DNA of 56,960 nt from a virus, in the UHGV virus genome UHGV-1359774; one strand, written 5' to 3'. Below, in pieces: positions 22,329 to 40,385 of the stretch. Position numbers and translations under genes: made by a program. Below the pieces are notes generated by a model. It was not told the DNA's origin. It saw only the letters and a list, made by a program, of their open reading frames with translations, and made no database searches. The first letter of the stretch is position 1, and each line of letters starts with the position of its first letter.

Positions 22329-22337
22329 CTGCCCCCC

Positions 22338-25422: not shown

Positions 25423-25424
25423 AC

Positions 25425-25808
25425 ATGGGCGCAATCTGGCCCCCTGCCCTGCCGCAACGCCCGCAGCGAAGCGGCTACAAATCGCAGTACCCGAACCAGC
25501 TTATCCGTTCCGATATGGACAGTGGCCCGGCCAAGGTGCGCCGACGCGGCAACGCCAAGCCGGTGACGCTCTCTCTGACCTATGTGCTCAATGCGGAGCA
25601 ATTGGCGGTTTTCAAGGATTTTGTCTCGGAAGCCATCGCGGAGGGCGCGGTCTGTTTCGACTGGCCGCATCCGGTGCTCAACCGTTATGTCCGGGCGCGC
25701 CTAGTGGGACAAAATTCGTCCATCTACGACGAACAACTGTTCGGCGATACCTTGGACTGGCAGATAACCTTAACACTGGAGTACTGGCCCGATGCCCCTC
25801 TCACCTAA
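25425..25808 (+). CDS. minor tail protein M-like
   Basis: GGAGG RBS; size and blocks (GYKSQYP...VTLSLTYVLNAEQLAVFKDF) parallel lambda gpM. Confidence 0.5.
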   Translation: MGAIWPPALPQRPQRSGYKSQYPNQLIRSDMDSGPAKVRRRGNAKPVTLSLTYVLNAEQLAVFKDFVSEAIAEGAVCFDWPHPVLNRYVRARLVGQNSSIYDEQLFGDTLDWQITLTLEYWPDAPLT

Positions 25809-26313: not shown

Positions 26314-26314
26314 T

Positions 26315-26719
26315 ATGGACCTGCGCAAATATATCGGCATCCCGTTTCGGGACCACGGGCGCGGCTTTGACGGTTGCGATTGCTGGGGCTTGTGTATGCT
26401 GGCCTACCGCGAGGAACTTGGCCTGGAACTGCCGGACCTGGGCGACGCGTACTCCGAAGCCTATGCCCGCGGCGAAGTGGACGCGACAGTCAGGCGCACC
26501 GTGTCGGAATCCTGGAACCTTGACGTGACCGGCGGCCCGTATCTGCCCCTGGACGTGATGATATTCAGCCGGGGCGGCGAGGATTGCCATGTGGGGCTAT
26601 GGGTGGCCCCCGGAGAAATGCTGCATGTTATTGAGGGCATCGACGCCTGCCTGGAACGCTTCGATAGCGCGCGATGGAAACGCAAGCTCTCGCGGGTTAT
26701 CCGGCACCGGCAGCGCTAA
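26315..26719 (+). CDS. tail assembly protein K-like, NlpC/P60 Cys-His peptidase domain
   Basis: GCDCWGLCMLAY ... HVGLWV ... H pattern; GGAGAG RBS. Confidence 0.55.
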   Translation: MDLRKYIGIPFRDHGRGFDGCDCWGLCMLAYREELGLELPDLGDAYSEAYARGEVDATVRRTVSESWNLDVTGGPYLPLDVMIFSRGGEDCHVGLWVAPGEMLHVIEGIDACLERFDSARWKRKLSRVIRHRQR

Positions 26720-26932: not shown

Positions 26933-27143
26933 TCACTCCATGGGCCAAACGCCGTCATAGCAGCCGTCAAGAGCCTTGGTGTGATTCTGAGGCCAGAACT
27001 TGCGGGGACAAATGCCTGTATCCGCGTCCGAAGCGCTGGAGTCCTCCCGTAGCGGAATCCAGATGGCGCACACGCCACAGACCAGATAAGGGCGTGCATC
27101 CGGTTTAGAGCCGTCAGAGACAGGCGCACAGGCCGCCTTACAC
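26933..27143 (-). CDS. hypothetical Cys-rich protein
   Basis: ATG overlaps the stop of the upstream gene (ATGTGTAA). Confidence 0.2.
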
Positions 27144-27335
27144 ATCAGCGGCAGCCTTTTTGGCAGACTTGCGCGGCTTCTGCCGGGCAGGCGCGGAAAG
27201 CGGCTCCACACTCTGTTCAAGCTGGACCGCCTTCGCATCACGTGATTGACTGACCACCTTCACCGGCCTGGGCAGTGGCGTGTTCACGCCCAGAGCCAGG
27301 CAAAGACGCCGTAAAAACAAGATATTCACATCCAT
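27138..27335 (-). CDS. hypothetical small basic protein with Lys/Ala-rich tail
   Basis: AAGAGGA RBS. Confidence 0.35.
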   Translation of the reverse strand: MDVNILFLRRLCLALGVNTPLPRPVKVVSQSRDAKAVQLEQSVEPLSAPARQKPRKSAKKAAADV

Positions 27336-27385
27336 GTCCTCTTATAGCGCCCCGGCCAGGCACGATACCCAGCCGGGGCGCACCG

Positions 27386-27616
27386 TCAGCGCGCGACTTC
27401 TTCCGAAGCCGTGACAATCGCCAACAGCATTACCGCTATCTCTTCCAGTTGCCGCAGCGACGGCACGCGGCCACGGGTCTTGTAAGCCATGAACATCGGC
27501 GCGCCTTCACGGATCACCTTGTTCAAGACATCCCGAGAGCTGCGCTCCCGTTCCATGGTCCGCGCGACATCATCTTCAACACGGTCCATGACCCGGCGCA
27601 GGGCGTCGTCACTCAT
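27386..27616 (-). CDS. hypothetical protein
   Basis: Start overlaps the stop of the upstream gene. Confidence 0.35.
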   Translation of the reverse strand: MSDDALRRVMDRVEDDVARTMERERSSRDVLNKVIREGAPMFMAYKTRGRVPSLRQLEEIAVMLLAIVTASEEVAR

Positions 27617-28127
27617 GGCTCACCTCGCCGATAGGCATGCTTTCGCCTTCTTCTTGCGCCTCTTCCCCGCTCTCCGGGGCCGGGGGCTGAAAAAGATCGC
27701 TTGCCCATGTTTCCTTCGGCCCCTGTGCGCGGGACTCTTCCGCCACAGTGCCGAAAAGGGAATCAACAAAACCCTGTGCAGGGTCTGTGCTTTGGTGCTT
27801 GGGCGTGGCCGCATAGCAGATCATGTTACCCGGCTGCAACAGGTCAAACGGGATTGGCCTGTCCGACAGCCGGAAGAACAGATATTGCCGCGCGGGCGTG
27901 GTCGTGCCTGGAATCGGCGGCTGTTGCATGACAACATAGCTGAAGACCATCTTGCCCTTGTCGCTCACCGTCACCTGCTGGCTGTTCCGCGCAATGCAGT
28001 GCATACGCGAAACATTGGGTTCCATGCCATAGCGCGGATCAGCGTCCGCAGGCAGGTTGGGAATGTAGACCAGGGAATAGTCCACTACGCCGTCGCTGAA
28101 ACGGGCCGGAAGAGGCAGTTTGCTCAT
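27609..28127 (-). CDS. hypothetical protein
   Basis: Start 2 nt after the stop of the upstream ORF. Confidence 0.4.
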   Translation of the reverse strand: MSKLPLPARFSDGVVDYSLVYIPNLPADADPRYGMEPNVSRMHCIARNSQQVTVSDKGKMVFSYVVMQQPPIPGTTTPARQYLFFRLSDRPIPFDLLQPGNMICYAATPKHQSTDPAQGFVDSLFGTVAEESRAQGPKETWASDLFQPPAPESGEEAQEEGESMPIGEVSHE

Positions 28128-28131
28128 GGTT

Positions 28132-28468
28132 ACACCTTTGCCCTTTCGGGCTGGCTTTGGGTTTCTTCCTTTTTCATGAGATGGGCGCGGGCCTGGGCCG
28201 CAGCCGAAGCCACATGCCCAAGCTCACGGATAGCGTCACGAATGCAGCCGGTTCCGGCCTTGTAGGCGTCCACGGCCTTTTTCGCTTCGCCGTATTCCAT
28301 CTCCACAATGCCCCAGTATTCGCCCTTGGCGAGATAGGGCGGCCATGTGGGCGGCGGGCTGTTTACGGTATCCCATTCGAAGTTCAGGGTTTCGCGTAAA
28401 TAATCACCGCCGCCCCGAGGTTCTCGGTCAGCTTCTTCAGCTTGGTTTTCATCCCGTCCGTGACCGTC
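28132..28468 (-). other. open frame continuing in phase directly after the TGA of the Arg/Asp-rich ORF (possible recoding, extension domain, or separate gene with a non-ATG start)
   Basis: The frame stays open ~110 codons after the TGA at 28472-74 and keeps an R/D/E/G-rich composition (ADGHGRDENQAEEADREPRGGGDY...). Confidence 0.3.
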
Positions 28469-28471
28469 CGC

Positions 28472-28882
28472 TCAGTCATAGCCGTCGTCATCGTCGTAAT
28501 ATTCCCGCTCACGGCGGCTACGACGCTCACGGCGGCGTTCACGGTCGTTTTCGTCCTCGTAGTAGCGGCGCTCACGCTCCGGGTCCACGAAGCCCTGAGT
28601 CTGCCAGTCGTCCTCGCGGTAACGGCGGCGGCCCATGTCATCGTGCTCGTCGCCGCGATAGCCCCAGTCCTCGTGATCGTCGTTGTACTCGTGGCGACGG
28701 CGGCGGAATTCGCCGTAGCGATTGCGCGGGGGCAGACGCCGGGCCTCATAGCGGCCGCCGTCCTCCTCCATGCGCATCCGGCTCCGGCCGCCGGAACCGC
28801 GACGATAATCGTATTCGTAACGGTCATCGTCGCGCCGGTCGTCCCGTCCGCCATCACGGCGCATCATGATTCGCATGGTCAT
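28472..28882 (-). CDS. Arg/Asp/Glu/Tyr-rich low-complexity protein (136 aa)
   Basis: GGAGG RBS 6 nt upstream; G/C-rich third positions in this frame; the hydrophobic antisense ORFs are artefacts of GAC/CGC codons. Confidence 0.5.
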   Translation of the reverse strand: MTMRIMMRRDGGRDDRRDDDRYEYDYRRGSGGRSRMRMEEDGGRYEARRLPPRNRYGEFRRRRHEYNDDHEDWGYRGDEHDDMGRRRYREDDWQTQGFVDPERERRYYEDENDRERRRERRSRREREYYDDDDGYD

Positions 28883-28893
28883 AGCATGCCTCC

Positions 28894-29706
28894 TTACGCG
28901 GTGGGCGTGGTGGTAGAGGCCGTGCGGATCGCGGCCATGTGACCAATGATGTTCACGGTGTTGGCGTTCATTTCATTGCGCAGCTGCGAACCCAGACCAG
29001 CCACAGCCTGGGCCGTGAAGTTCTGGGCTTCCATGGACGCAATCTTGGACTTGGCGTCACAGAGCTGGGTTTGCAGGTTTTCGTAAGCGTAGCGGTCGAT
29101 CAGCTGACGCGTGGCCGAACCTTCGGCCATAATGGTGCGCTGCGTGGTGCAGCAGCAATCATTGATGGCGCTGGTGACCTGATTGGTGCTCTGGCAGGAC
29201 AGCAGGGCATTGTCCTTGCTGGAACTCAGGATGGCCGTGTTGACGCCGTTGAAGCCCTGACAGAGGCTGTTCTGAAGCGACTGGTCACCGGAGACGATGG
29301 TGGAATTCAGGCCCGCAAAGCCCTGAGTCAGGGTGTTGTTCACGCTGGCGGTCTGCGCGGCGGTTTCAGCGGCAAGACCGCCGAAGCCCTGGCAGGCGGC
29401 CAGATTCGCGGCGTTCTGGCCCTGCAAGACCTGCAATCCAACGCCATTAATGCTGGTCTGGATGCCGCTCAGCGCGTCCAGCTCAGCGGTGGAAGCGGTG
29501 CCGCCGCCGGGATTCCCGGCGATAATCACCGAAGGAGCGCCGCCGCCGGAATTGCAGCAGCCGCCATTGCCGCCGTTGTTGCCAAAGCCGTTGCCCCACC
29601 AGGAGCCGAACAGCGCCCCGGCAAAGGCTCCAACAGCATCGCCCCAGCCGTTGTTGTTGCCGCCGTCATTGACCGAAAAAGTGGGGACAAACCCGTCCAT
29701 GCCCAT
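28894..29706 (-). CDS. Gly/Asn/Gln/Ser/Thr-rich protein with CC and CCC clusters and QGF(x)G(x)N repeats (~271 aa from the ATG with RBS)
   Basis: GGAGG RBS before MGMDGF; own promoter upstream and a terminator before that. Confidence 0.5.
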   Translation of the reverse strand: MGMDGFVPTFSVNDGGNNNGWGDAVGAFAGALFGSWWGNGFGNNGGNGGCCNSGGGAPSVIIAGNPGGGTASTAELDALSGIQTSINGVGLQVLQGQNAANLAACQGFGGLAAETAAQTASVNNTLTQGFAGLNSTIVSGDQSLQNSLCQGFNGVNTAILSSSKDNALLSCQSTNQVTSAINDCCCTTQRTIMAEGSATRQLIDRYAYENLQTQLCDAKSKIASMEAQNFTAQAVAGLGSQLRNEMNANTVNIIGHMAAIRTASTTTPTA

Positions 29707-29764
29707 AGCAATACCTCCAAAGTTTTTCCCGGCGGGATGCCGGGCTTTGAAAAGATGATGGGCC

Positions 29765-29794
29765 AATGGATGGATTCTTACTAACTACGGATGG
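29765..29794 (-). promoter_or_regulatory. sigma70-like promoter TTGTCG-N17-TAAGAAT for the Gly-rich/RD-rich operon
   Basis: Direct reading of the minus strand. Confidence 0.4.
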
Positions 29795-29840
29795 TTACGA
29801 CAAAGTATGGGTGGGATATGGATAGCGTTTTTTTGAACAT

Positions 29841-29869
29841 GAAAAAGCCGGGCATTTAAGGTGCCCGGC
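29841..29869 (-). terminator. intrinsic terminator (GCCGGGCA-loop-TGCCCGGC then TTTTT) after the Zn-ribbon gene
   Basis: Direct reading. Confidence 0.55.
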
Positions 29870-29874
29870 CGTGG

Positions 29875-30081
29875 TCATTCCAGCTTTGCTTTCCGGACTG
29901 GACGCAATCTGCCTTCCGGGCGTTCCAGCATGTACCGCGCGCCGCATTCCTTGTTCTGGCATGTCCAGTAGGAAACGCGCGAATATTCGAGAGGATGGCC
30001 ATCAAGGCCGATGGAAATCGTTCTGGTGCATTTTAAGGATTGCAGCCCGCATTTTGGGCAAAATTGTCTGCTGGTCGCCAT
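29875..30081 (-). CDS. small zinc-ribbon protein (CPKCG...CQNKEC)
   Basis: ORF followed by an intrinsic terminator. Confidence 0.4.
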   Translation of the reverse strand: MATSRQFCPKCGLQSLKCTRTISIGLDGHPLEYSRVSYWTCQNKECGARYMLERPEGRLRPVRKAKLE

Positions 30082-30245
30082 GGTGCAAGCCCCTTGGCTC
30101 GCCCCGACCGCCCTATGGATTTTTTTATCAATTTCCGATTAACTACGCAGGGCGGATACTCTGCAAGCGGCTTCCCTCCGCTTGTGGGGCCGTGGGGATG
30201 CGTTGCTGCGCATCTCCGGCGGGGGCGCGTGAAGCCCCCGCCCCT

Positions 30246-30605
30246 CTACCGCTTTTGGGCGCGTGCCCTGTTGTTCCGTTCTTCTTTTTTGTGGCGCTCC
30301 GCGTTTTTCAGGTCAACAAATTGCGCATCCAGGAGCCGCAGCCGCCACAGCAGTTCTTCCGGCTCGGCATGACGCGCGATCTCCGCTAAAAGGGCCTCAT
30401 GCCGGATTGCCAGGGTTGCGCCCGTCATGTTGTCCACCGGCGCGCCATGCTGCCGCAGCATGTGCCATATCCGCATCGCTTCCTCGTTACGCGGACTCAG
30501 CGGCCAATGTCGGGTACAGTTGGCGCAATCTTGCTTCTCTTTGTGTATCCAACGGCAGTCATTGCATGTGGGCCGGTCGCCAAATTGCCAACCGGCCCAC
30601 TCCAT
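30246..30605 (-). CDS. tail assembly chaperone T-part (-1 frame extension, G-T fusion)
   Basis: Starts inside the stop of the G-like ORF (TGATG); slippery A_AAA_AAC heptamer. Confidence 0.5.
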   Translation of the reverse strand: MEWAGWQFGDRPTCNDCRWIHKEKQDCANCTRHWPLSPRNEEAMRIWHMLRQHGAPVDNMTGATLAIRHEALLAEIARHAEPEELLWRLRLLDAQFVDLKNAERHKKEERNNRARAQKR

Positions 30606-30970
30606 CAGTTTTTTTCTTCTTCCAGCCGCCCTTCACGCGCGATATGCTTTAAACGGCCATACTGCCGGTCCATGAAGGCATTTTCGACGTCGCAGAGTTC
30701 GGCCACCATGTCGGGGCTGAACGGCAGCGGTTCATTGTTCAAATCCATCAAACCGTCCCAACCCACAATCTGCGTCTGCATGACCACGGGCAGGATTCTG
30801 AGCCCGGCCAGATCGGTGTCATAGCCGCATTCGGCCATGACCTTTTTTACCACCTCTTGCTGCGCCGTGGCAGACAGGGGCTTGCAAAGAAAATACGCCT
30901 GGCCGTCCGGCGTCAGATCCATGCGAAAAACCTTTTCCTGATATTTCCTGGTCAGAACCGTGAAGGCCAT
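30605..30970 (-). CDS. tail assembly chaperone G-like
   Basis: AAGGAG RBS; position after the tube gene; slippery site at its 3' end. Confidence 0.55.
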   Translation of the reverse strand: MAFTVLTRKYQEKVFRMDLTPDGQAYFLCKPLSATAQQEVVKKVMAECGYDTDLAGLRILPVVMQTQIVGWDGLMDLNNEPLPFSPDMVAELCDVENAFMDRQYGRLKHIAREGRLEEEKN

Positions 30971-30972
30971 GT

Positions 30973-32118
30973 TTACGCTCCTTGAATGGTGATGGTGAAA
31001 CTGTCTTCGCCCTGGATGCCCAAAGCCGTGCCCGTGCTGTCCAGCGTCAGAACAGCGTCGTCCTCACCGACTGTGGGAGAGGAAAGACGCACCTTGGGTG
31101 TGTTCACCGCAATACTGCCGTTGCTGTTTTCCGCCTTCAGGGTCACGTCCAGGGTCACGCCTTCCAGCGTTTGACCAAAGCGTACGGCCTCTGCTTTACG
31201 GAAGTACACGCTCATATCCATGCTGATGCTGCGCTTATTGTCCGACGCCTCGCCGGGGAACTTGTCTCCGACTTCCTCAAGGAATTGCGTGGGCAGCGAC
31301 GCGGTGAAGGTGGAAGGACGGATACGGCCCTCTACACCATCAATCAGCAGTGAAACGCTGTTGTTTTCCACTTCCACGCCGATGGTATCCGCCTCCGGCA
31401 GCCAGGGGCCGATTTCCTCTCCCGCCAGCCAGTCCGTGGGCGCGGTGTCCAGAACCAGCGTATCCGTGGCCGTGTCGATGGCCGTAATCTGGTATTCTTG
31501 GCTCTCATTCTTGCTCACGTTACGGATGAAACCGCCCACGCTGAAGGCCAGGGATTGCCCCGTTTCCAGCTTGATTGTGGTAGTGTCCGGAACTTCGGCC
31601 AACTCACCGAAGCCGACCACGCCAGCCCGGCGGCCACGCCCGGAGAAGGTGAAGATAGTCAGGCCGTCGCGATCCACGGCCCATTCCAGGCTTTCCACGG
31701 TGCAACCGCTCATAAACTGCACGGTCTGGTCATTTTGCAGCCAGAGGGACGCCGTGGGGCGGCAAGTGGAAAGCCGGTACTGGCGCTTATTGGCTGTGCT
31801 GGCATCCACAATGCCGAGAGTGGCCCGGAACAGCGCGTCACCCTGCGGGGCACCGGCGGACGGCGTAAGCCGCGCCACCATGGGCAAGGACCAGTCGCCA
31901 GGCGGCATGGCGTCCCGGCTCTGGCTCACCACATCCAGGGTGGCGGCAAGTTCCGGGCTATCCGTGAATGTGGGTGTCTGCGCGATGGAACCGCGCCCGG
32001 CTGGACGGATAAACCCGGCGGGCACCGGCTTTTCAAGTATACCGGTGGCTGTTTCCAGCATGACAAAGGCGCGCTGGACATTGCTTTTTTGCACGGTCGA
32101 GCACATGGCTTGCGACAT
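30973..32118 (-). CDS. major tail (tube) protein
   Basis: AGGAGG RBS before the ATG at 32118; size and position upstream of the G/GT chaperone. Confidence 0.55.
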   Translation of the reverse strand: MSQAMCSTVQKSNVQRAFVMLETATGILEKPVPAGFIRPAGRGSIAQTPTFTDSPELAATLDVVSQSRDAMPPGDWSLPMVARLTPSAGAPQGDALFRATLGIVDASTANKRQYRLSTCRPTASLWLQNDQTVQFMSGCTVESLEWAVDRDGLTIFTFSGRGRRAGVVGFGELAEVPDTTTIKLETGQSLAFSVGGFIRNVSKNESQEYQITAIDTATDTLVLDTAPTDWLAGEEIGPWLPEADTIGVEVENNSVSLLIDGVEGRIRPSTFTASLPTQFLEEVGDKFPGEASDNKRSISMDMSVYFRKAEAVRFGQTLEGVTLDVTLKAENSNGSIAVNTPKVRLSSPTVGEDDAVLTLDSTGTALGIQGEDSFTITIQGA

Positions 32119-32119
32119 T

Positions 32120-32578
32120 CTAGACCTCCTGTGCCCTGGGCCCTTCAAAAACGGTGTGCCAGGGGATATTGGTTTGTATCAGATACCGGCCTGTGTCCGG
32201 CGCGGTGCCGCGATCTTCGGTATAGGGTTCCCCACAATGCACGGCGCATGATCCGGCCGAGAAAGACTTGCGGCGGAAAGCGGCCTCAAGCGCTGAACCT
32301 GTCTGGAGGCCCTGCCCTACCGCCATCTTCTTCGGTAGGCTTTGTGTGATGATCCAGACGCCCACGCGGGTGGAAAGAGCCTGTGGGCCGCCCAGTTCGT
32401 CGGAAGTGGAAAGGCCCGGCTTGAAACTGTAGAGGATATGCAGCCTCGCCTGATCCAGATTGCTGTCGCTGTTCATGGGCAAAAGCTGATATTGTCCGGA
32501 ACCCGCCGGAAAAAGCGCGTCCAGCGCCTCGCTGGTCAGGGTGGAAAAGGCCCGCAGAATCAGATCAAGGCGCAGCAT
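32120..32578 (-). CDS. tail terminator / tail completion-like protein (by position)
   Basis: GGGGAAAA RBS; sits between the gp10-like and tube genes. Confidence 0.4.
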   Translation of the reverse strand: MLRLDLILRAFSTLTSEALDALFPAGSGQYQLLPMNSDSNLDQARLHILYSFKPGLSTSDELGGPQALSTRVGVWIITQSLPKKMAVGQGLQTGSALEAAFRRKSFSAGSCAVHCGEPYTEDRGTAPDTGRYLIQTNIPWHTVFEGPRAQEV

Positions 32579-32580
32579 GG

Positions 32581-32979
32581 CTAGATTTTCCCCAGCTCTG
32601 AGTTCATCTGGTGCTTCATCTCCTGGAGAGCGAGGGCAACCATGCCCTGAGGGGCGTTCTTCGACCAGCCTGCCTCAAGCGCCTCGATATATTCCAAATT
32701 GCTGCTGATATACCACATATCCGGATTTGCCTGGAGTATTTCCGCTACTGTCTTCTGCACAATGGTGTTTATCTCGCCTTTGTAGTTTCCCGGCGGCGGC
32801 ACATAGTCACTGGGCGCACTGGTGGAAAACTGCCACGAGCGCTTGGCTCTGCCCGTCTCCACCGGAGTGCGCTCCACGATTTTTTTGTAAGTCATAATCA
32901 CAATGCCCCTGACGGCTCCCAACGCCTCACCTTGGATTTTAAGCCGCACCAGTTCGTTGAGCGTGCGCTGGAAGTCGTC
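32581..32979 (-). pseudogene. 5'-truncated copy of the HK97 gp10-like gene, created at the duplication junction
   Basis: Identical to the 3' 369 nt of 37134..37637; the junction at 32979/32980 joins it in phase to the frame downstream of the RD-rich ORF. Confidence 0.5.
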
Positions 32980-33024
32980 GTCAGCTTCTTCAGCTTGGTT
33001 TTCATCCCGTCCGTGACCGTCCGC

Positions 33025-33435
33025 TCAGTCATAGCCGTCGTCATCGTCGTAATATTCCCGCTCACGGCGGCTACGACGCTCACGGCGGCGTTCACGGTCG
33101 TTTTCGTCCTCGTAGTAGCGGCGCTCACGCTCCGGGTCCACGAAGCCCTGAGTCTGCCAGTCGTCCTCGCGGTAACGGCGGCGGCCCATGTCATCGTGCT
33201 CGTCGCCGCGATAGCCCCAGTCCTCGTGATCGTCGTTGTACTCGTGGCGACGGCGGCGGAATTCGCCGTAGCGATTGCGCGGGGGCAGACGCCGGGCCTC
33301 ATAGCGGCCGCCGTCCTCCTCCATGCGCATCCGGCTCCGGCCGCCGGAACCGCGACGATAATCGTATTCGTAACGGTCATCGTCGCGCCGGTCGTCCCGT
33401 CCGCCATCACGGCGCATCATGATTCGCATGGTCAT
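33025..33435 (-). CDS. Arg/Asp/Glu-rich low-complexity protein (copy 2)
   Basis: Identical to 28472..28882. Confidence 0.5.
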   Translation of the reverse strand: MTMRIMMRRDGGRDDRRDDDRYEYDYRRGSGGRSRMRMEEDGGRYEARRLPPRNRYGEFRRRRHEYNDDHEDWGYRGDEHDDMGRRRYREDDWQTQGFVDPERERRYYEDENDRERRRERRSRREREYYDDDDGYD

Positions 33436-33446
33436 AGCATGCCTCC

Positions 33447-34259
33447 TTACGCGGTGGGCGTGGTGGTAGAGGCCGTGCGGATCGCGGCCATGTGACCAAT
33501 GATGTTCACGGTGTTGGCGTTCATTTCATTGCGCAGCTGCGAACCCAGACCAGCCACAGCCTGGGCCGTGAAGTTCTGGGCTTCCATGGACGCAATCTTG
33601 GACTTGGCGTCACAGAGCTGGGTTTGCAGGTTTTCGTAAGCGTAGCGGTCGATCAGCTGACGCGTGGCCGAACCTTCGGCCATAATGGTGCGCTGCGTGG
33701 TGCAGCAGCAATCATTGATGGCGCTGGTGACCTGATTGGTGCTCTGGCAGGACAGCAGGGCATTGTCCTTGCTGGAACTCAGGATGGCCGTGTTGACGCC
33801 GTTGAAGCCCTGACAGAGGCTGTTCTGAAGCGACTGGTCACCGGAGACGATGGTGGAATTCAGGCCCGCAAAGCCCTGAGTCAGGGTGTTGTTCACGCTG
33901 GCGGTCTGCGCGGCGGTTTCAGCGGCAAGACCGCCGAAGCCCTGGCAGGCGGCCAGATTCGCGGCGTTCTGGCCCTGCAAGACCTGCAATCCAACGCCAT
34001 TAATGCTGGTCTGGATGCCGCTCAGCGCGTCCAGCTCAGCGGTGGAAGCGGTGCCGCCGCCGGGATTCCCGGCGATAATCACCGAAGGAGCGCCGCCGCC
34101 GGAATTGCAGCAGCCGCCATTGCCGCCGTTGTTGCCAAAGCCGTTGCCCCACCAGGAGCCGAACAGCGCCCCGGCAAAGGCTCCAACAGCATCGCCCCAG
34201 CCGTTGTTGTTGCCGCCGTCATTGACCGAAAAAGTGGGGACAAACCCGTCCATGCCCAT
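33447..34259 (-). CDS. Gly/Asn/Gln-rich Cys-cluster protein (copy 2)
   Basis: Identical to 28894..29706. Confidence 0.5.
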   Translation of the reverse strand: MGMDGFVPTFSVNDGGNNNGWGDAVGAFAGALFGSWWGNGFGNNGGNGGCCNSGGGAPSVIIAGNPGGGTASTAELDALSGIQTSINGVGLQVLQGQNAANLAACQGFGGLAAETAAQTASVNNTLTQGFAGLNSTIVSGDQSLQNSLCQGFNGVNTAILSSSKDNALLSCQSTNQVTSAINDCCCTTQRTIMAEGSATRQLIDRYAYENLQTQLCDAKSKIASMEAQNFTAQAVAGLGSQLRNEMNANTVNIIGHMAAIRTASTTTPTA

Positions 34260-34427
34260 AGCAATACCTCCAAAGTTTTTCCCGGCGGGATGCCGGGCTT
34301 TGAAAAGATGATGGGCCAATGGATGGATTCTTACTAACTACGGATGGTTACGACAAAGTATGGGTGGGATATGGATAGCGTTTTTTTGAACATGAAAAAG
34401 CCGGGCATTTAAGGTGCCCGGCCGTGG

Positions 34428-34634
34428 TCATTCCAGCTTTGCTTTCCGGACTGGACGCAATCTGCCTTCCGGGCGTTCCAGCATGTACCGCGCGCCGCAT
34501 TCCTTGTTCTGGCATGTCCAGTAGGAAACGCGCGAATATTCGAGAGGATGGCCATCAAGGCCGATGGAAATCGTTCTGGTGCATTTTAAGGATTGCAGCC
34601 CGCATTTTGGGCAAAATTGTCTGCTGGTCGCCAT
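34428..34634 (-). CDS. small zinc-ribbon protein (copy 2)
   Basis: Identical to 29875..30081. Confidence 0.4.
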   Translation of the reverse strand: MATSRQFCPKCGLQSLKCTRTISIGLDGHPLEYSRVSYWTCQNKECGARYMLERPEGRLRPVRKAKLE

Positions 34635-34798
34635 GGTGCAAGCCCCTTGGCTCGCCCCGACCGCCCTATGGATTTTTTTATCAATTTCCGATTAACTACG
34701 CAGGGCGGATACTCTGCAAGCGGCTTCCCTCCGCTTGTGGGGCCGTGGGGATGCGTTGCTGCGCATCTCCGGCGGGGGCGCGTGAAGCCCCCGCCCCT

Positions 34799-35158
34799 CT
34801 ACCGCTTTTGGGCGCGTGCCCTGTTGTTCCGTTCTTCTTTTTTGTGGCGCTCCGCGTTTTTCAGGTCAACAAATTGCGCATCCAGGAGCCGCAGCCGCCA
34901 CAGCAGTTCTTCCGGCTCGGCATGACGCGCGATCTCCGCTAAAAGGGCCTCATGCCGGATTGCCAGGGTTGCGCCCGTCATGTTGTCCACCGGCGCGCCA
35001 TGCTGCCGCAGCATGTGCCATATCCGCATCGCTTCCTCGTTACGCGGACTCAGCGGCCAATGTCGGGTACAGTTGGCGCAATCTTGCTTCTCTTTGTGTA
35101 TCCAACGGCAGTCATTGCATGTGGGCCGGTCGCCAAATTGCCAACCGGCCCACTCCAT
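34799..35158 (-). CDS. chaperone T-part (copy 2)
   Basis: Identical to 30246..30605. Confidence 0.5.
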   Translation of the reverse strand: MEWAGWQFGDRPTCNDCRWIHKEKQDCANCTRHWPLSPRNEEAMRIWHMLRQHGAPVDNMTGATLAIRHEALLAEIARHAEPEELLWRLRLLDAQFVDLKNAERHKKEERNNRARAQKR

Positions 35159-35523
35159 CAGTTTTTTTCTTCTTCCAGCCGCCCTTCACGCGCGATATGC
35201 TTTAAACGGCCATACTGCCGGTCCATGAAGGCATTTTCGACGTCGCAGAGTTCGGCCACCATGTCGGGGCTGAACGGCAGCGGTTCATTGTTCAAATCCA
35301 TCAAACCGTCCCAACCCACAATCTGCGTCTGCATGACCACGGGCAGGATTCTGAGCCCGGCCAGATCGGTGTCATAGCCGCATTCGGCCATGACCTTTTT
35401 TACCACCTCTTGCTGCGCCGTGGCAGACAGGGGCTTGCAAAGAAAATACGCCTGGCCGTCCGGCGTCAGATCCATGCGAAAAACCTTTTCCTGATATTTC
35501 CTGGTCAGAACCGTGAAGGCCAT
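35158..35523 (-). CDS. tail assembly chaperone G-like (copy 2)
   Basis: Identical to 30605..30970. Confidence 0.55.
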   Translation of the reverse strand: MAFTVLTRKYQEKVFRMDLTPDGQAYFLCKPLSATAQQEVVKKVMAECGYDTDLAGLRILPVVMQTQIVGWDGLMDLNNEPLPFSPDMVAELCDVENAFMDRQYGRLKHIAREGRLEEEKN

Positions 35524-35525
35524 GT

Positions 35526-36671
35526 TTACGCTCCTTGAATGGTGATGGTGAAACTGTCTTCGCCCTGGATGCCCAAAGCCGTGCCCGTGCTGTCCAGCGT
35601 CAGAACAGCGTCGTCCTCACCGACTGTGGGAGAGGAAAGACGCACCTTGGGTGTGTTCACCGCAATACTGCCGTTGCTGTTTTCCGCCTTCAGGGTCACG
35701 TCCAGGGTCACGCCTTCCAGCGTTTGACCAAAGCGTACGGCCTCTGCTTTACGGAAGTACACGCTCATATCCATGCTGATGCTGCGCTTATTGTCCGACG
35801 CCTCGCCGGGGAACTTGTCTCCGACTTCCTCAAGGAATTGCGTGGGCAGCGACGCGGTGAAGGTGGAAGGACGGATACGGCCCTCTACACCATCAATCAG
35901 CAGTGAAACGCTGTTGTTTTCCACTTCCACGCCGATGGTATCCGCCTCCGGCAGCCAGGGGCCGATTTCCTCTCCCGCCAGCCAGTCCGTGGGCGCGGTG
36001 TCCAGAACCAGCGTATCCGTGGCCGTGTCGATGGCCGTAATCTGGTATTCTTGGCTCTCATTCTTGCTCACGTTACGGATGAAACCGCCCACGCTGAAGG
36101 CCAGGGATTGCCCCGTTTCCAGCTTGATTGTGGTAGTGTCCGGAACTTCGGCCAACTCACCGAAGCCGACCACGCCAGCCCGGCGGCCACGCCCGGAGAA
36201 GGTGAAGATAGTCAGGCCGTCGCGATCCACGGCCCATTCCAGGCTTTCCACGGTGCAACCGCTCATAAACTGCACGGTCTGGTCATTTTGCAGCCAGAGG
36301 GACGCCGTGGGGCGGCAAGTGGAAAGCCGGTACTGGCGCTTATTGGCTGTGCTGGCATCCACAATGCCGAGAGTGGCCCGGAACAGCGCGTCACCCTGCG
36401 GGGCACCGGCGGACGGCGTAAGCCGCGCCACCATGGGCAAGGACCAGTCGCCAGGCGGCATGGCGTCCCGGCTCTGGCTCACCACATCCAGGGTGGCGGC
36501 AAGTTCCGGGCTATCCGTGAATGTGGGTGTCTGCGCGATGGAACCGCGCCCGGCTGGACGGATAAACCCGGCGGGCACCGGCTTTTCAAGTATACCGGTG
36601 GCTGTTTCCAGCATGACAAAGGCGCGCTGGACATTGCTTTTTTGCACGGTCGAGCACATGGCTTGCGACAT
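35526..36671 (-). CDS. major tail (tube) protein (copy 2)
   Basis: Identical to 30973..32118. Confidence 0.55.
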   Translation of the reverse strand: MSQAMCSTVQKSNVQRAFVMLETATGILEKPVPAGFIRPAGRGSIAQTPTFTDSPELAATLDVVSQSRDAMPPGDWSLPMVARLTPSAGAPQGDALFRATLGIVDASTANKRQYRLSTCRPTASLWLQNDQTVQFMSGCTVESLEWAVDRDGLTIFTFSGRGRRAGVVGFGELAEVPDTTTIKLETGQSLAFSVGGFIRNVSKNESQEYQITAIDTATDTLVLDTAPTDWLAGEEIGPWLPEADTIGVEVENNSVSLLIDGVEGRIRPSTFTASLPTQFLEEVGDKFPGEASDNKRSISMDMSVYFRKAEAVRFGQTLEGVTLDVTLKAENSNGSIAVNTPKVRLSSPTVGEDDAVLTLDSTGTALGIQGEDSFTITIQGA

Positions 36672-36672
36672 T

Positions 36673-37131
36673 CTAGACCTCCTGTGCCCTGGGCCCTTCA
36701 AAAACGGTGTGCCAGGGGATATTGGTTTGTATCAGATACCGGCCTGTGTCCGGCGCGGTGCCGCGATCTTCGGTATAGGGTTCCCCACAATGCACGGCGC
36801 ATGATCCGGCCGAGAAAGACTTGCGGCGGAAAGCGGCCTCAAGCGCTGAACCTGTCTGGAGGCCCTGCCCTACCGCCATCTTCTTCGGTAGGCTTTGTGT
36901 GATGATCCAGACGCCCACGCGGGTGGAAAGAGCCTGTGGGCCGCCCAGTTCGTCGGAAGTGGAAAGGCCCGGCTTGAAACTGTAGAGGATATGCAGCCTC
37001 GCCTGATCCAGATTGCTGTCGCTGTTCATGGGCAAAAGCTGATATTGTCCGGAACCCGCCGGAAAAAGCGCGTCCAGCGCCTCGCTGGTCAGGGTGGAAA
37101 AGGCCCGCAGAATCAGATCAAGGCGCAGCAT
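36673..37131 (-). CDS. tail terminator-like protein (copy 2)
   Basis: Identical to 32120..32578. Confidence 0.4.
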   Translation of the reverse strand: MLRLDLILRAFSTLTSEALDALFPAGSGQYQLLPMNSDSNLDQARLHILYSFKPGLSTSDELGGPQALSTRVGVWIITQSLPKKMAVGQGLQTGSALEAAFRRKSFSAGSCAVHCGEPYTEDRGTAPDTGRYLIQTNIPWHTVFEGPRAQEV

Positions 37132-37133
37132 GG

Positions 37134-37637
37134 CTAGATTTTCCCCAGCTCTGAGTTCATCTGGTGCTTCATCTCCTGGAGAGCGAGGGCAACCATGCCC
37201 TGAGGGGCGTTCTTCGACCAGCCTGCCTCAAGCGCCTCGATATATTCCAAATTGCTGCTGATATACCACATATCCGGATTTGCCTGGAGTATTTCCGCTA
37301 CTGTCTTCTGCACAATGGTGTTTATCTCGCCTTTGTAGTTTCCCGGCGGCGGCACATAGTCACTGGGCGCACTGGTGGAAAACTGCCACGAGCGCTTGGC
37401 TCTGCCCGTCTCCACCGGAGTGCGCTCCACGATTTTTTTGTAAGTCATAATCACAATGCCCCTGACGGCTCCCAACGCCTCACCTTGGATTTTAAGCCGC
37501 ACCAGTTCGTTGAGCGTGCGCTGGAAGTCGTCCACGTCCTTGCAGCGTTTGTTGTTGAGCTCCTTGATACGCGCGGCAAAGGCTTTTCTGGTGCGGTCTA
37601 TACCGTCAAGCTCTTTGGCAAGTGCGTCAGCCATCAC
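37134..37637 (-). CDS. HK97 gp10-family tail-component protein (full length)
   Basis: Block RTPVETGRAKRSWQF ... NLEYIEALEAG matches the gp10 family. Confidence 0.5.
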   Translation of the reverse strand: MMADALAKELDGIDRTRKAFAARIKELNNKRCKDVDDFQRTLNELVRLKIQGEALGAVRGIVIMTYKKIVERTPVETGRAKRSWQFSTSAPSDYVPPPGNYKGEINTIVQKTVAEILQANPDMWYISSNLEYIEALEAGWSKNAPQGMVALALQEMKHQMNSELGKI

Positions 37638-38035
37638 GCCGCCGTCCTGCTGTAGCCCGTGGCCCCGCCCGCGTTGCGCACGAAAATTTTGTACATGATG
37701 GGCACCGTGCCGGGCTTGGTGGCTTCCACATAAATCACATCCCAGGCTTCTTTCTCGCCATTCGGGTTTTCGGCTCGTACCCAGTCCGTGGTGTCCGGCG
37801 CGGGGATGGCATTACCGGCGCACCAGATCACGCTGTCGTCCTGCTGCACCAGATTGCCGATTTCCTGCACCTTGGGGCTATCCCACATGCCCACGAAAGA
37901 TGTCACGACCTGCTCAATGTCCGGCTGCATGGTTTCCGGGTTGGTGGGGCCTTCGGTTTCCCGCACAAACTCCATACGCTGGCCGTATTGGCTGATTTTC
38001 TTGTTGGCCTTGCGGGCCATAGCTGCCGGATTCAT
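37634..38035 (-). CDS. hypothetical head-tail joining protein (by position)
   Basis: AAGGTG RBS; TGATG overlap with the upstream gene. Confidence 0.35.
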   Translation of the reverse strand: MNPAAMARKANKKISQYGQRMEFVRETEGPTNPETMQPDIEQVVTSFVGMWDSPKVQEIGNLVQQDDSVIWCAGNAIPAPDTTDWVRAENPNGEKEAWDVIYVEATKPGTVPIMYKIFVRNAGGATGYSRTAA

Positions 38036-38478
38036 CAGCGCCGCACCTTTTTGACAGGGTCGTTCTTCCATAAAAAACGGTACAGGGCATCGAAGAGCTT
38101 GCCATGCATGTAGCAGATTCGCTCCTGCTGCTCTGTTTCTGCCATGTCGTTTTCCAGCCCATTGCAAAGAATGAAGTTCACCGTGGCGTGCATAGCCTCA
38201 TGTGCGACCACTTCCGTGTCCCACGTCCCTCGGGCAAAATGCATTTCTCCCAAGATGCGCGGCAGGCGACGCGTACCGTCAGGCAGGATCGTATACGGCG
38301 CGGGACACGTCAGGCCGATAGTCCGTCTGTCGCAACCATCTACACGGCAAGCCATCTCCCTTTGCAGCGCATCAGGATTGGACCAGAGCACCGCATGCCA
38401 GCAATGCGCGCCGTCCTCTATGGGGATATCCACGGTATGGGCAACATTGGCCCGGTCAGGATGATAAATACACGCCAT
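38035..38478 (-). CDS. small protein with HExxH motif (HEAMH), putative zincin-like
   Basis: GGGAGG RBS; VVAHEAMHATVNF. Confidence 0.4.
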   Translation of the reverse strand: MACIYHPDRANVAHTVDIPIEDGAHCWHAVLWSNPDALQREMACRVDGCDRRTIGLTCPAPYTILPDGTRRLPRILGEMHFARGTWDTEVVAHEAMHATVNFILCNGLENDMAETEQQERICYMHGKLFDALYRFLWKNDPVKKVRR

Positions 38479-38480
38479 GC

Positions 38481-39044
38481 CTACGACCTCCCGGCTTCGA
38501 CCATGCCGGTGACGCTCTGCGCCTGACCCGGAATTTTCGCCAGAAACATCCCCACAAGGCCCGAAACAGCCGGGTACAAGGTTTCACTCGCGGCATCCTC
38601 AAAATACGTTGTGGAGAGGGGCCCTACGGTTTCAGACGCTACCCTGCCGCCGCGCTCTACTGGGGCCAGCGGGTCTTCCCCGCCCATGAACAAGGCCGCC
38701 AGTTCGATACAGGCCCGCTTGACCGCCTGCGGCACGCTGTCTCCCGGCACGAATTCGCCGCCATGCGGCATACCAGGCAAAGGAACATCCGCGCGCGGCC
38801 AGGCCATCGGCCAATCCCAGACTTGACGGCTGCCTAGCCATTGCAGGGAGTTAAGATAGTCGCTGGCCCGGATAAGTGCTGCTTCCTTGACCGGGAGATT
38901 GGGATCAGGTTCGAGGTCGCTACCCTGAACAGGAGCAGGCCAGTCGGAAATGCCGCGCGACACAAGATAGACGTCCGCATCTTCCACAGACGCATAGCTG
39001 TTCGCGCCTTCAGGCATGGTTCCGTCTTCAACGATCAGGGCCAT
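38481..39044 (-). CDS. head-tail connector / adaptor (gp6-like) protein
   Basis: AAGGAGAAA RBS; position after the capsid gene. Confidence 0.4.
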   Translation of the reverse strand: MALIVEDGTMPEGANSYASVEDADVYLVSRGISDWPAPVQGSDLEPDPNLPVKEAALIRASDYLNSLQWLGSRQVWDWPMAWPRADVPLPGMPHGGEFVPGDSVPQAVKRACIELAALFMGGEDPLAPVERGGRVASETVGPLSTTYFEDAASETLYPAVSGLVGMFLAKIPGQAQSVTGMVEAGRS

Positions 39045-39110
39045 ACAGTTTCTCCTTCCAATGGCGACCGGGAACAGGGGGACGCTCCCGGCCGCTGTGG
39101 AGGGGGAAAA

Positions 39111-39356
39111 TCAGGCATCCGCCTGTTTGGCGCGCAACGCCTGCAGCTGCTGCTTCAGCATCCTGTTTTCGTTGCGCAACACTTCCAGTTCATTCACGCT
39201 GTGCTCACGCCGAAGCCAGGAGGCAATGCGCAGATTTCGTTGGATTTCCGTTTCCTGCGCGGGCGCGTTCTCCTGCACGCCGGGCGTGGGGCTCTGCCCT
39301 TCGCCAGGGCCCTGTGGCTGCTGTGCGTCGTCCATGGTGCTTTTTTCTTTAGCCAT
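39111..39356 (-). CDS. hypothetical small coiled-coil protein
   Basis: GGAGG RBS. Confidence 0.35.
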   Translation of the reverse strand: MAKEKSTMDDAQQPQGPGEGQSPTPGVQENAPAQETEIQRNLRIASWLRREHSVNELEVLRNENRMLKQQLQALRAKQADA

Positions 39357-39365
39357 ATCCGCCTC

Positions 39366-40385
39366 CTAGCCCTGGGTAATCAGCACGGCTAGGGGAATAC
39401 GCTTGCGCTCAAACGCCCGCTCCCAGTTGGCCGCCGCCTGCAACTCGGCGATGGTCGGCGTATGGTCCAAGCCGAACTTGAAGCCCTGCGGGTGAATGAT
39501 CCATTCCACGCGGCTGTAGAGCAGTTCCTCGCCGCCACCGTTACCGGAAGCGGGTTTGCGCTCATACTCCATCGGCACCTTGGGTGAACCCATGCCCAGC
39601 GCGATAGCGCCGGGGCCGAATAGGTAGGAATAGTATTTGGCCGGGGCCGGGGTGTCGCCCGTGACAGGGGGAACCACGGTCATAGCGTCATCCACGATAA
39701 TGCCCGCGCCCATGTACGTGCCGAAGCCGATGTCAGCCTGCGCGTTGGGGATGGTATCAATCAGGTTTTGGCGCTGCATGGTCTGGTAGACGGTGGAATG
39801 CACAGCGATATTACCGAGCTGCGAGGAGCGGTCGCCCATGCTGCCCTTAGCGGTTATGTAGGCATCCGCGTTGAAAAGCGCAGCAGTGCCGCTTTCACCG
39901 CTGACATCCACCACCATGTCCTTGGGGCCGCCGGAAGCCTGATCAGCCGCAGCCACGCCATACAGCGAGGCCAGGACGCGCCGCGTCAGCACCGTGTTCC
40001 AGTAATCGCCGATCTGGGTAGCGATAGCGCCCATGGGATCGCTGCCGTAAAGGTCGGCGGTCAGGTCCATGACAGACCAGGACTGGTTCAGGCTCTGGCG
40101 CACGGCCAGATTGCTGATGCCCGTGATTTTCTTCGGCACGGACAGCACGGCCGGATCATCGGAACTGATGTTCGGATCATCGTCCCGAAGCGGGGCCAGC
40201 ATACGCGGTTCAATGGTTTTGCCGCCGTTCTCGCTGTTCAGGAAACTCGTCAGCATGGGGTCTTCCCGCGCCACACCGGAGCGCACAAAGGCGTTGGTGT
40301 TCAGAGTGCGCAGGATGATGTTGCCGACAATGATTTTCGAGGCAACAATGAGGTCTTTGACTTGGGTGGTATTGGCATCAGCCAT
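39366..40385 (-). CDS. major capsid protein
   Basis: 339 aa; AAGGAAAG RBS; follows the scaffold gene; lambda-E-like size and composition. Confidence 0.65.
   Translation of the reverse strand: MADANTTQVKDLIVASKIIVGNIILRTLNTNAFVRSGVAREDPMLTSFLNSENGGKTIEPRMLAPLRDDDPNISSDDPAVLSVPKKITGISNLAVRQSLNQSWSVMDLTADLYGSDPMGAIATQIGDYWNTVLTRRVLASLYGVAAADQASGGPKDMVVDVSGESGTAALFNADAYITAKGSMGDRSSQLGNIAVHSTVYQTMQRQNLIDTIPNAQADIGFGTYMGAGIIVDDAMTVVPPVTGDTPAPAKYYSYLFGPGAIALGMGSPKVPMEYERKPASGNGGGEELLYSRVEWIIHPQGFKFGLDHTPTIAELQAAANWERAFERKRIPLAVLITQG

Follow-up and report, generated by a model that had tools for sequence, protein, structure and literature searches.

A probable, very recent 4,553-bp tandem duplication of tail genes in a temperate siphovirus from the human gut

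Extent of the Repeat and the Phage Genome

The window, i.e., the whole stretch of 56,960 nt that was analysed (UHGV virus genome UHGV-1359774), probably contains a real and very recent 4,553-bp tandem duplication in the genome of a temperate siphovirus. Direct comparison of positions 28427-32979 with 32980-37532 showed two units of 4,553 bp each with 0 mismatches, and the repeat search returned the same pair, in agreement with the perfect tandem duplication claimed by the first-pass annotation. Identity did not continue beyond the unit edges (0 bases on the left, 0 on the right), which ruled out a third or partial copy. The copies are adjacent and head to tail, with exactly one novel junction at 32979/32980. 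Relative to late transcription, which runs on the minus strand, copy 1 (28427..32979) lies downstream, and its low-coordinate edge (28426/28427) is ancestral, contiguous sequence. Copy 2 (32980..37532) is the upstream copy, and its high-coordinate edge (37532/37533), located inside the Neck1 gene, is likewise ancestral and contiguous. A perfect repeat of 4.5 kb cannot have arisen by chance. The window had only one other repeat of 40 nt or more, formed by the 15-nt pentapeptide array at both ends of the contig.

The window is a circularly closed, lambda-like temperate siphovirus genome of ~56.8 kb. The contig ends share an exact overlap of 150 nt, through which the contig closes into a ~56.8-kb circle with a pentapeptide-repeat ORF kept in frame, and the adjacency of the two window ends was confirmed by two related contigs (L015 and L016). 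The integrase gene is internal to the genome and host flanks are absent, indicating that the duplicated genome was assembled as an excised or replicating form. The nearest genome-resolved relatives were prophages of Bilophila and Desulfovibrio, and the predicted host is a Bilophila-like human gut bacterium of the Desulfovibrionaceae. The genome measures 56.8 kb with the duplication vs. 52.3 kb without it; more distantly related contigs in IMG/VR spanned 55.9-60.6 kb, and the contig of one close relative was 53.7 kb. The phage encodes an AAA_24 protein, a family that we take to be Sak4-like recombinases. Its packaging genes (Terminase_6N, Mu F-like, and DUF4055 portal) are presumably of the kind associated with headful packaging.

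Gene Content of the Duplicated Unit

The unit contains a 5'-truncated Neck1/tail-completion gene, a terminator-like gene of 152 aa, the tail tube gene, a G/GT chaperone pair, and genes for a Gly-rich and an RD-rich protein, all on the minus strand. The gene labels of the first-pass annotation were broadly right, since the tube, the G/GT slippery site, and Neck1 were recovered through PF18906, the heptamer, and phrog_169, respectively. The intact Neck1 gene (37134..37634, 166 aa, a length also found in relatives) matched phrog_169 at 3.4e-30; its HK97-gp10_like match (E=0.024) was below the cut-off, and that domain starts at residue 35. A possible tail terminator of 152 aa (36673..37131; second copy 32120-32578) was assigned by its position between Neck1 and the tube, and matched Phage_tail_terminator_5 weakly (E=0.11); relatives carry one copy. 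The tail tube of 381 aa (35526..36671; second copy 30973-32118) belonged to phrog_290 and to PF18906, Phage_tube_2 (1.4e-08, 35.1 bits against a cut-off of 27).

In the lambda-like module reportedly described by Xu, Hendrix and Duda in 2004, the gene order is tube, G/GT (expressed with a programmed -1 frameshift), and tape measure. As in that module, the tube is followed by an ORF of 121 aa that ends in A_AAA_AAC and then by an ORF in the -1 frame, an arrangement kept in relatives. The G-like chaperone ORF (35158..35523; second copy 30605-30970) carries the heptamer near its 3' end, at 35167-35161, and the heptamer and its context GAAGAAGAAAAAAACTGA are kept in four relatives (L001-L004) despite only 67-69% nucleotide identity. 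The T-like ORF of 119 aa (34799..35158; second copy 30246-30605) is shifted by -1 with respect to the frame of G and would yield a GT frameshift product. In the same four relatives ACG replaces the ATG of the T ORF, which would thus be expressible there only by frameshifting. The pair is therefore described here as a predicted G/GT pair of lambda type, having both a slippery site of the X_XXY_YYZ form and the -1 frame. The location of the lambda module, between tube and tape measure, was not found. In contrast to lambda, a terminator and then the accessory genes come after GT, and the gene for the tape measure lies ~10 kb away on the opposite strand with M-, L-, and K-like genes, as in all close relatives.

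An intrinsic-terminator-like hairpin (34399..34423; second copy 29846-29870; minus strand), with a 9-bp stem that includes 7 GC pairs followed by a T-run, separates GT from the Gly-rich gene. The accessory protein encoded next is rich in Gly, Asn, and Gln, with 270 aa from the called start (33447..34259; second copy 28894-29706); it matched phrog_9288, a family of unknown function, at 6e-22, and is called as 270-277 aa in relatives. The last ORF (33025..33435; second copy 28472-28882) encodes 136 aa rich in Arg, Asp, Glu, and Tyr (RD-rich) and is, by its pattern of conservation, predicted to be a real coding frame: among the frames it scored best in tblastx against L001-L004 (64+46 bits), and the homologous ORF was intact, with in-frame indels. 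Both copies include this Gly-rich/RD-rich accessory unit, as had been noted at first pass. It has the terminator upstream, is absent from one relative (L007), and is present in the others. A search for a promoter of the cassette or of the downstream copy found no convincing candidate.

The Novel Junction

The novel junction (50-mer at 32955..33004, around 32979/32980) is blunt. On the minus strand the sequence before it reads TAT GAC TGA, in which TGA (33027-33025) is the stop codon of the RD-rich gene, followed by the 15 codons GCG GAC GGT CAC GGA CGG GAT GAA AAC CAA GCT GAA GAA GCT GAC. Across the join it continues as GAC GAC TTC CAG CGC ACG CTC AAC GAA CTG GTG CGG CTT AAA. The right breakpoint separates codon V34 of Neck1 from codon D35, exactly at the codon boundary. 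The first-pass annotation had described an in-phase joining of Neck1 to the open frame behind the RD-rich ORF, with GAC/GTC microhomology. The phase is correct, and the minus-strand translation ...AEEAD followed by DDFQRTLNELVRLK is the one that it gave. No support was found for any significance of the phase, and in-phase joining occurs by chance in 1 of 3 cases. The RD-rich TGA is only 15 codons upstream and none of these codons is ATG, GTG, or TTG, so that no fusion protein would be formed except by stop-codon read-through. The microhomology did not hold. The bases flanking the native breakpoints differ, giving a 0-nt extension on either side, and GTC merely starts and ends the unit. No local homology between the breakpoints was found within 100 nt on either side, and a microhomology-mediated duplication was rejected on these grounds.

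The junction does truncate Neck1, as proposed, but the remnant is 399 nt long (32581..32979, minus strand; codons 35-166, i.e., the last 132 codons plus the stop), and not 369 nt. The smaller figure counts the ORF only from an internal GTG at 32949. The likely translatable remnant has 104 aa and starts at an ATG at 32895 that is preceded by AGGGG; gene callers run on the two short contigs carrying the junction (L019 and L020) reported only this fragment. The left breakpoint is contained in a conserved 22-codon ORF, MKTKLKKLTENLGAAVIIYAKP (28384..28452, minus strand), after its codon 8. A relative (L001) encodes MRLKDIKKTLKNLTKDLGAAVIIYGKR at the equivalent position. At the junction, the copy of this ORF becomes a chimeric ORF of 35 codons (32898-33005).

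Single-Copy Relatives and Recurrence of the Junction

The genes of the unit occur once each in more than 25 related loci or contigs, and both outer boundaries represent ancestral contiguous sequence in at least 20 related contigs. The 50-mer across 28426/28427 was found in 23 related loci (L008-L017 and L021-L031; the short contigs that carry the junction, L019 and L020, are excepted), and that across 37532/37533 in L010, L013, L017, L018, L021-L023, and L025-L031. When one unit was removed, the window aligned end to end at 100% identity with L021/L029 (Logan SRR31716145, 14.4 kb) and L031 (ENA ERZ28575304). The existence of 100%-identical single-copy contigs from other samples indicates that the duplication arose within one clone and is probably polymorphic in it.

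The exact junction 50-mer was found only in L019 (SRR5677791) and L020 (SRR5677840); searched contigs of IMG/VR and JGI lacked it. These contigs of 1,288 and 1,130 nt, respectively, match the window at 100% identity over their full length, the junction included, with different contig ends and perfectly matching flanks of 286-315 nt and 815-1,002 nt. Both belong to per-accession Logan assemblies, made with a different pipeline in which a 31-mer counts only if it was seen two or more times (PMC12424806). Each of the two runs thus contributes two or more k-mer observations of the junction, and its recurrence makes a one-off chimera or a misjoin confined to the contig unlikely. The two runs have neighbouring accession numbers and may share a study, or even a subject, with the source of the window. 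The contigs do not reach the outer flanks, and taken alone they fit a tandem duplication, a 4.55-kb circle, or a higher-order array. The choice between a very recent duplication and an artefact, as put at first pass, was well posed, and the presence of the junction 50-mer in two other SRA assemblies favours a real junction.

Origin of the Duplication and Alternative Explanations

The duplication may have formed by a single illegitimate, homology-independent join between two copies of the phage genome, possibly two sister prophages, two units within a replication concatemer, or the two members of a tandem dilysogen. Of the join points, one would lie 45 nt past the RD-rich gene, inside the small conserved ORF, and the other at Neck1 codon 35, so that the product would be a monomer plus 4,553 bp. 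A tandem duplication of this kind destroys no gene, as Neck1 is still intact on the upstream side and the small ORF on the downstream side. What the junction newly creates is limited to the N-terminally truncated Neck1 fragment and the chimeric small ORF, and second copies are present of the 152-aa gene, the tube, G/GT, and the Gly-rich and RD-rich genes. The duplication is probably neutral or slightly costly and probably short-lived. Homologous recombination between the 4.5-kb copies would be expected to remove it rapidly, and the AAA_24 protein would favour such a collapse during replication. Rapid collapse would account both for the zero divergence of the copies and for the occurrence of single-copy genomes with no other difference. 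The copy number of two is the number assembled; if the contig came from a short-read de Bruijn graph, no path through the junction edge would be shorter than A-U-J-U-B.

It is unlikely, though with an appreciable chance, that the junction is real and that the two-copy contig reflects the resolution of a loop by the assembler, in a sample that was mostly single copy. The junction would then derive from a minority form, such as a duplicated sub-population, a 4.55-kb circle left over from recombination, or an array with three or more copies. A short-read graph assembly is suggested by the terminal overlap of 150 nt together with a contig end that falls within a repeat array, the same clone occurs as a single copy elsewhere, and the junction contigs stop short of the flanks. 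Moreover, assemblers occasionally output duplicated regions, and terminal repeats in repetitive sequence can be spurious (PMC8116208). On the other hand, the junction outlived graph cleaning in two accessions in which the native branches did not, which is unexpected for a very rare minority (PMC12424806). A 4.55-kb circle of tail genes would have no obvious origin of replication, and a circle at high copy number would yield a full 4.5-kb contig rather than pieces of 1.1-1.3 kb.

Less likely still is a real duplication that is kept by selection, either for the dosage of the tube and chaperone or the Gly-rich/RD-rich genes or as compensation for genome length. At least three datasets, namely the window and two runs, carry the junction. 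The tape measure gene of the duplication strain is ~0.9 kb shorter than that of relatives (1,003 aa vs. 1,270-1,314 aa), and no genome in its group is shorter than its single-copy form of ~52.3 kb. However, 100%-identical single-copy genomes occur in other samples and only two copies were seen. Headful packaging, which we presume from the packaging genes, imposes no minimum genome length, the unit contains a terminator, and the downstream copy has no evident promoter. A pure artefact, in which the junction existed in no DNA molecule and came from chimerism in a read or during amplification, or from a misjoin in assembly or scaffolding, is very improbable and already largely refuted: zero divergence, a blunt join such as arises in vitro or in silico, and its absence from the IMG/VR and JGI contigs would agree with it, but an identical 50-nt junction with perfect flanks in two further accessions from a different pipeline would not, and random chimeras are not expected to recur at the same base pair.

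The recent duplication favoured here was also compared with duplications generated by assemblers. The CheckV filter is aimed at duplications that occupy 20% or more of a contig and derive from concatenated copies of whole genomes (PMC8116208). The window resembles such cases in having a perfect internal repeat on a contig with a direct terminal repeat, but the repeat covers 9,106 of 56,960 nt (16%, of which 8% is extra) and is a segment rather than a whole genome. The window did not fit the pattern of an assembly concatemer or duplication artefact, given a proportion below 20% and the presence of the junction in two Logan accessions from another assembler.

Comparison with Known Duplications and Implications

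Tandem duplication is an ordinary class of event, and no new mechanism or system is revealed here. The classical lambda duplication phages were reportedly described by Bellett, Busse and Baldwin in 1971, and likewise by Emmons and co-workers; similar tandem duplications are known in T4 and P22. The window shares with the lambda phages a head-to-tail repeat of several kb in a dsDNA tailed phage, one homology-free novel joint, and intact genes. In the lambda phages the copies recombine, which makes them unstable, and they are tolerated only within packaging limits; the same would be expected here. Unlike the lambda cases, which were selected in the laboratory and often in deletion backgrounds, the present one comes from natural human-gut metagenomes and concerns the tail tube and chaperone genes of a Bilophila-type phage. 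Amplifications that depend on RecA are known in bacteria, and Elde et al. are said to have described gene-amplification "genomic accordions" in poxviruses in 2012. These resemble the present case as recent, homogeneous, and reversible tandem segmental duplications, in the accordions also within a large dsDNA genome. The accordions differ in showing variable copy numbers above two and demonstrable selection on a specific gene, whereas only two copies are modelled here. If the selection reading were true, the duplication would represent a phage "genomic accordion" that segregates naturally in a circulating Bilophila phage clone in human gut metagenomes.

The 56.8-kb contig is unsafe as a reference at face value, because the same clone exists at ~52.3 kb, and the duplication inflates gene counts and size-based completeness estimates by 8%. 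It also documents, for a wild gut phage, a tandem duplication formed independently of homology, which is polymorphic in a single clone and has a junction that can be traced in public SRA runs. The junction 50-mer can serve as a simple marker for gain and loss of the structural variant in vivo.

Further illegitimate rearrangements in this phage lineage, namely a 7.3-kb deletion of head genes in L015 and L016 and the loss of the accessory region from L007, also count in favour of a real duplication.

Duplicated Segment and Its Gene Content

Direct sequence comparison of 28427-32979 with 32980-37532 gave a 4,553-bp match with 0 mismatches, and the identity ended exactly at both edges of the unit, leaving neither a third nor a partial copy. 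A repeat finder run on the window returned the same pair of copies, and the only other long repeat that it detected was a 15-nt array located at both contig ends. The tandem duplication noticed in the first-pass annotation is confirmed, and its coordinates were exact.

The late genes are carried on the minus strand and are described here from high to low coordinates. Genes encoding the small and large terminase, portal, Mu F-like head protein, scaffold, and major capsid (Pfam labels) precede the unit, followed by those for an adaptor (Ad1), a 147-aa protein, and a head closure protein (Hc1), all on the same strand. The next gene, for the tail-completion protein Neck1 (37134-37634, minus strand; phrog_169, 3e-30; HK97-gp10_like below threshold), contains the start of the unit exactly at codon 35. 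The unit then harbors a 152-aa gene with a weak tail-terminator match, a tail tube gene (PF18906), a G-like gene of 121 aa that ends in the slippery heptamer A_AAA_AAC, and a T ORF of 119 aa in the -1 frame. A strong terminator-like hairpin separates the T ORF from a Gly/Asn/Gln-rich gene (270 aa; phrog_9288, a family without assigned function), and a 136-aa gene rich in Arg, Asp, Glu, and Tyr (RD-rich) follows. The unit ends 45 nt past the RD-rich stop codon, after codon 8 of a 22-codon ORF. This small ORF (22-27 codons; minus strand, 28384-28452 in the window and ~13,535-13,620 in the related contig L001) lies directly after the RD-rich gene, holds the left breakpoint, and is kept at the protein level in relatives of 67% identity such as L001 (…KL/NLT.(N/D)LGAAVIIY(A/G)K…).

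The heptamer and its context were conserved in relatives that are just 67-69% identical, in which the T ORF lacks a start codon and T would therefore be made only by frameshifting. Judged by sequence, the assignment of the predicted G/GT tail assembly chaperone pair is well supported. The RD-rich ORF gave the best tblastx score against the distant relatives L001-L004, where its homologue is an intact ORF with in-frame indel differences, and by this comparison it is a real coding frame. A Pfam search of the G, T, Gly-rich, and RD-rich proteins returned no match, nor did PADLOC on the genes of the unit.

Structure of the Junction

At 32979|32980, the minus-strand join reads ...GCT GAC | GAC GAC TTC..., with the translation AEEAD|DDFQRT. 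The in-phase join described in the first-pass annotation was right in frame and translation: it continues the frame of the RD-rich gene, and a join is in phase with a chance of 1 in 3. No fusion protein is expected from it, because the RD-rich frame closes at a TGA 15 codons before the join, with no start codon in between. Gene callers applied to independent contigs that carry the junction predicted only a 104-aa Neck1 fragment, from an internal ATG at 32895. Since the event is a tandem duplication, the Neck1 gene and the small ORF are each still present in an intact copy, and no gene is inactivated. The microhomology proposed earlier did not hold: GTC is simply the triplet found at either end of the unit, and the bases beside the two parental breakpoints do not match. 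Likewise, no local similarity between the breakpoints was found in either orientation within 100 nt, and searches for direct or inverted homology nearby and for a site-specific signature at the breakpoints were negative.

Occurrence of Single-Copy and Junction Forms in Other Assemblies

Each gene of the unit occurred once in all seven IMG/VR relatives, in the 10 places with an identical G protein, and in the 10 with an identical Neck1. The 50-mers over the native boundaries 28426|28427 and 37532|37533 were present in the loci of relatives, which indicates that both outer boundaries are ancestral, whereas the junction 50-mer was not. After removal of one unit, the window was 100% identical, end to end, to SRR31716145_758 (14.4 kb, Logan, two samples) and to ENA ERZ28575304 scaffold_3541, while other relatives differed from it by 1-5%. 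The duplication is thus a within-clone difference. The 1,003-aa tape measure protein was found only in SRR31716145 by protein look-up in indexed collections that do not include the contig of the window itself, an exact-protein look-up of the integrase gave no match, and neither did a megablast of 27000-39000 against 50,697 GenBank phage records.

Look-up of the 104-aa Neck1 fragment across the whole index returned three contigs. Two of these, SRR5677791_21576 (1,288 nt) and SRR5677840_27667 (1,130 nt), contained the exact junction and were 100% identical to the window over a shorter flank of 286-315 nt and a longer one of 815-1,002 nt, with different contig ends. These runs may share a study or subject with the source of the window, and a literature search for their accession numbers gave no match. 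The third, L018, lacked the junction and was returned because a frameshift splits its Neck1 into 57-aa and 104-aa ORFs (5693-6183). Exact-protein look-ups of a 122-aa GTG-start Neck1 fragment, with V or M as first residue, gave no match. The junction 40-mer and 26-mer were absent from IMG/VR, and the 40-mer was absent from JGI metagenome contigs, in which the sole 26-mer match (L038, an unrelated 72%-GC contig without further similarity) was due to chance.

Logan assembles each accession alone at k=31 and drops 31-mers seen once (PMC12424806); therefore, the junction has repeated-read backing in each of the two runs, and such backing is not expected from a random chimera. As every 31-mer in Logan contigs is distinct (PMC12424806), this resource never shows two copies. 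The single-copy contig of SRR31716145 is informative only through its unbranched passage of both native boundaries, and the junction edge is absent or negligible in that run. Contigs that run through the junction imply that the native branches were pruned, as would be expected at low coverage because the junction needs ~60 nt of continuous coverage and the flank arm a few hundred nt against tip clipping. The short length of the junction contigs fits low coverage.

The junction is very likely real, and the two-copy structure is probable but unproven, as the contig alone proves neither exactly two copies nor the duplicated form as the majority. If the window was assembled from a short-read graph, the order flank-unit-junction-unit-flank is the shortest route through the graph that includes the junction edge. 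A longer array or a free 4.55-kb circle would yield the same junction, although nothing in such a circle suggests a replication function, and an abundant circle would have been recovered as a full-length contig. Assemblers now and then emit large duplicated regions, and terminal repeats within repetitive sequence can be spurious (CheckV authors; PMC8116208). In the window, only 8% of the genome is repeated, for which reason a whole-genome concatemer was rejected, and synteny confirms the circular closure.

Genome Form and Host

The same 150-nt sequence stands at both ends of the window. When the ends are joined, a pentapeptide-repeat ORF remains in frame, and its N- and C-terminal domains correspond to those of homologues in two independent contigs, L015 and L016, both of which are continuous across the meeting point. 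The terminal identity and this continuity indicate a closed circle of ~56,810 bp, or 52,257 bp minus the extra copy. The pentapeptide-repeat gene extends over the contig ends (56693-56960 joined to 151-~530; array period 15/45 nt) and encodes 214 aa in the window, compared with 157 aa in L016 and at least 168 aa in L015; thus, the repeat number is variable and the count in the window uncertain.

The window encodes a tyrosine integrase, an S24 repressor, DnaB, an AAA_24 protein, and antirepressors. It has no host flanks and is therefore a temperate phage genome in its excised or replicating form. Close relatives were located inside long bacterial contigs, one of 2.05 Mb. Searches of GTDB species representatives with tube-protein patterns revealed no relative, but portal alignment to species-representative genomes placed the nearest homologues in Bilophila wadsworthia, an uncultured Bilophila, and a Desulfovibrio MAG (60-65% amino acid identity), in keeping with the G+C content of the window (58%). 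Human gut assemblies commonly contain this phage family, with the G protein alone present in 251 collection blocks.

Origin and Possible Role of the Duplication

The most likely origin would be one homology-independent join between two genome copies, topologically equivalent to the loss of 47.7 kb from a genome dimer, with the product then propagated in a single lineage. Slipped-strand and microhomology-mediated routes are disfavored by the blunt joint; end joining or a topoisomerase-type illegitimate exchange may be compatible with it. Perfect 4.5-kb direct repeats are a good substrate for host RecA and the AAA_24 protein of the phage, from a Sak4-like family, so that frequent reversion would be expected. 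Such reversion would account for the zero divergence between copies and for the existence of 100%-identical single-copy genomes. Classical tandem duplications occur in lambda, T4, and P22, and the one in the window is of the same kind, whereas its likeness to the gene "accordions" of poxviruses is in form only. It is a further example of an already known kind of event, now in a new host group.

There was no sign of an adaptive role, and the downstream copy lies behind a terminator, with no evident promoter. Length compensation is conceivable, given a tape measure of 1,003 aa in this clone vs. 1,270-1,314 aa in relatives and related contigs of 53.7-60.6 kb. However, the packaging genes (Terminase_6N, Mu F-like, and DUF4055 portal) are presumably those associated with headful packaging, which has no minimum genome length.

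Further illegitimate rearrangements are found in the same phage group. L015 and L016, from different samples, share a 7.3-kb deletion (~6,960-7,490, equivalent to window 45675 joined to 38342) that joins the small terminase gene, of which the 5' part remains, to the 3' part of the 147-aa gene. The genes for the large terminase, portal, Mu F, scaffold, capsid, and adaptor are lost and all tail genes stay, which makes the element a head-less prophage derivative that is decaying or else tailocin-like. In another relative, L007, a gap at ~12,475-12,540 extends from Gly-rich codon 32 up to where the K-like gene region ends, with loss of the Gly-rich and RD-rich genes, the 56-, 172-, 76-, 63-, and 70-aa genes, and HicB. 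This accessory region is therefore dispensable or recently deleted.

Other Features of the Phage Group

The motif AAAAAAGTGAGTGTTTAATC (strand of the gene preceded) occurred in three copies, at ~41295-41331, ~22321-22369, and ~16535-16560, just upstream of the scaffold/capsid, tape measure, and J late operons, respectively, with positions conserved in the related contigs L007-L029. The motif probably serves these operons as a common late promoter or regulator site. The 49-nt "inverted repeat" reported by the repeat finder consists of two copies of the motif.

The tape measure and the M-, L-, and K-like genes (22411-26719, plus strand) are oriented opposite to the blocks at 28384-45899 and 10481-16529 (both minus strand). 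The tape measure block converges on tube-G-GT, with ~6 kb of accessory genes between them, and the J gene has the same orientation as the tube gene. All close relatives share this inverted block, which is unusual for lambda-like tail modules. The N-terminal 360 aa of the tape measure protein (22411-25422) are only ~45% identical to those of close relatives, and its length of 1,003 aa predicts a shorter tail if the usual ruler rule holds.

A low-GC island at 18884-20972 (32-40% G+C vs. 58% overall) adjoins an Endonuclease I gene (17269-18009); its 470-aa ORF showed only a weak VRR-NUC match and no PADLOC match, and the island resembles an accessory gene gained recently. In one relative (L009, 1671-3746), the Mu F-like head gene encodes 691 aa vs. 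371 aa and matches an intein-splicing domain; it appears to carry an intein insertion. Early genes at 4099-6194 encode a PAPS-reductase/BrxP-like protein (DndC-like, with a weak E-value) and a DUF5131 protein that matches the PADLOC candidates PDC-M41B and PDC-M30B; this pair may form a DNA-modification or counter-defence module.
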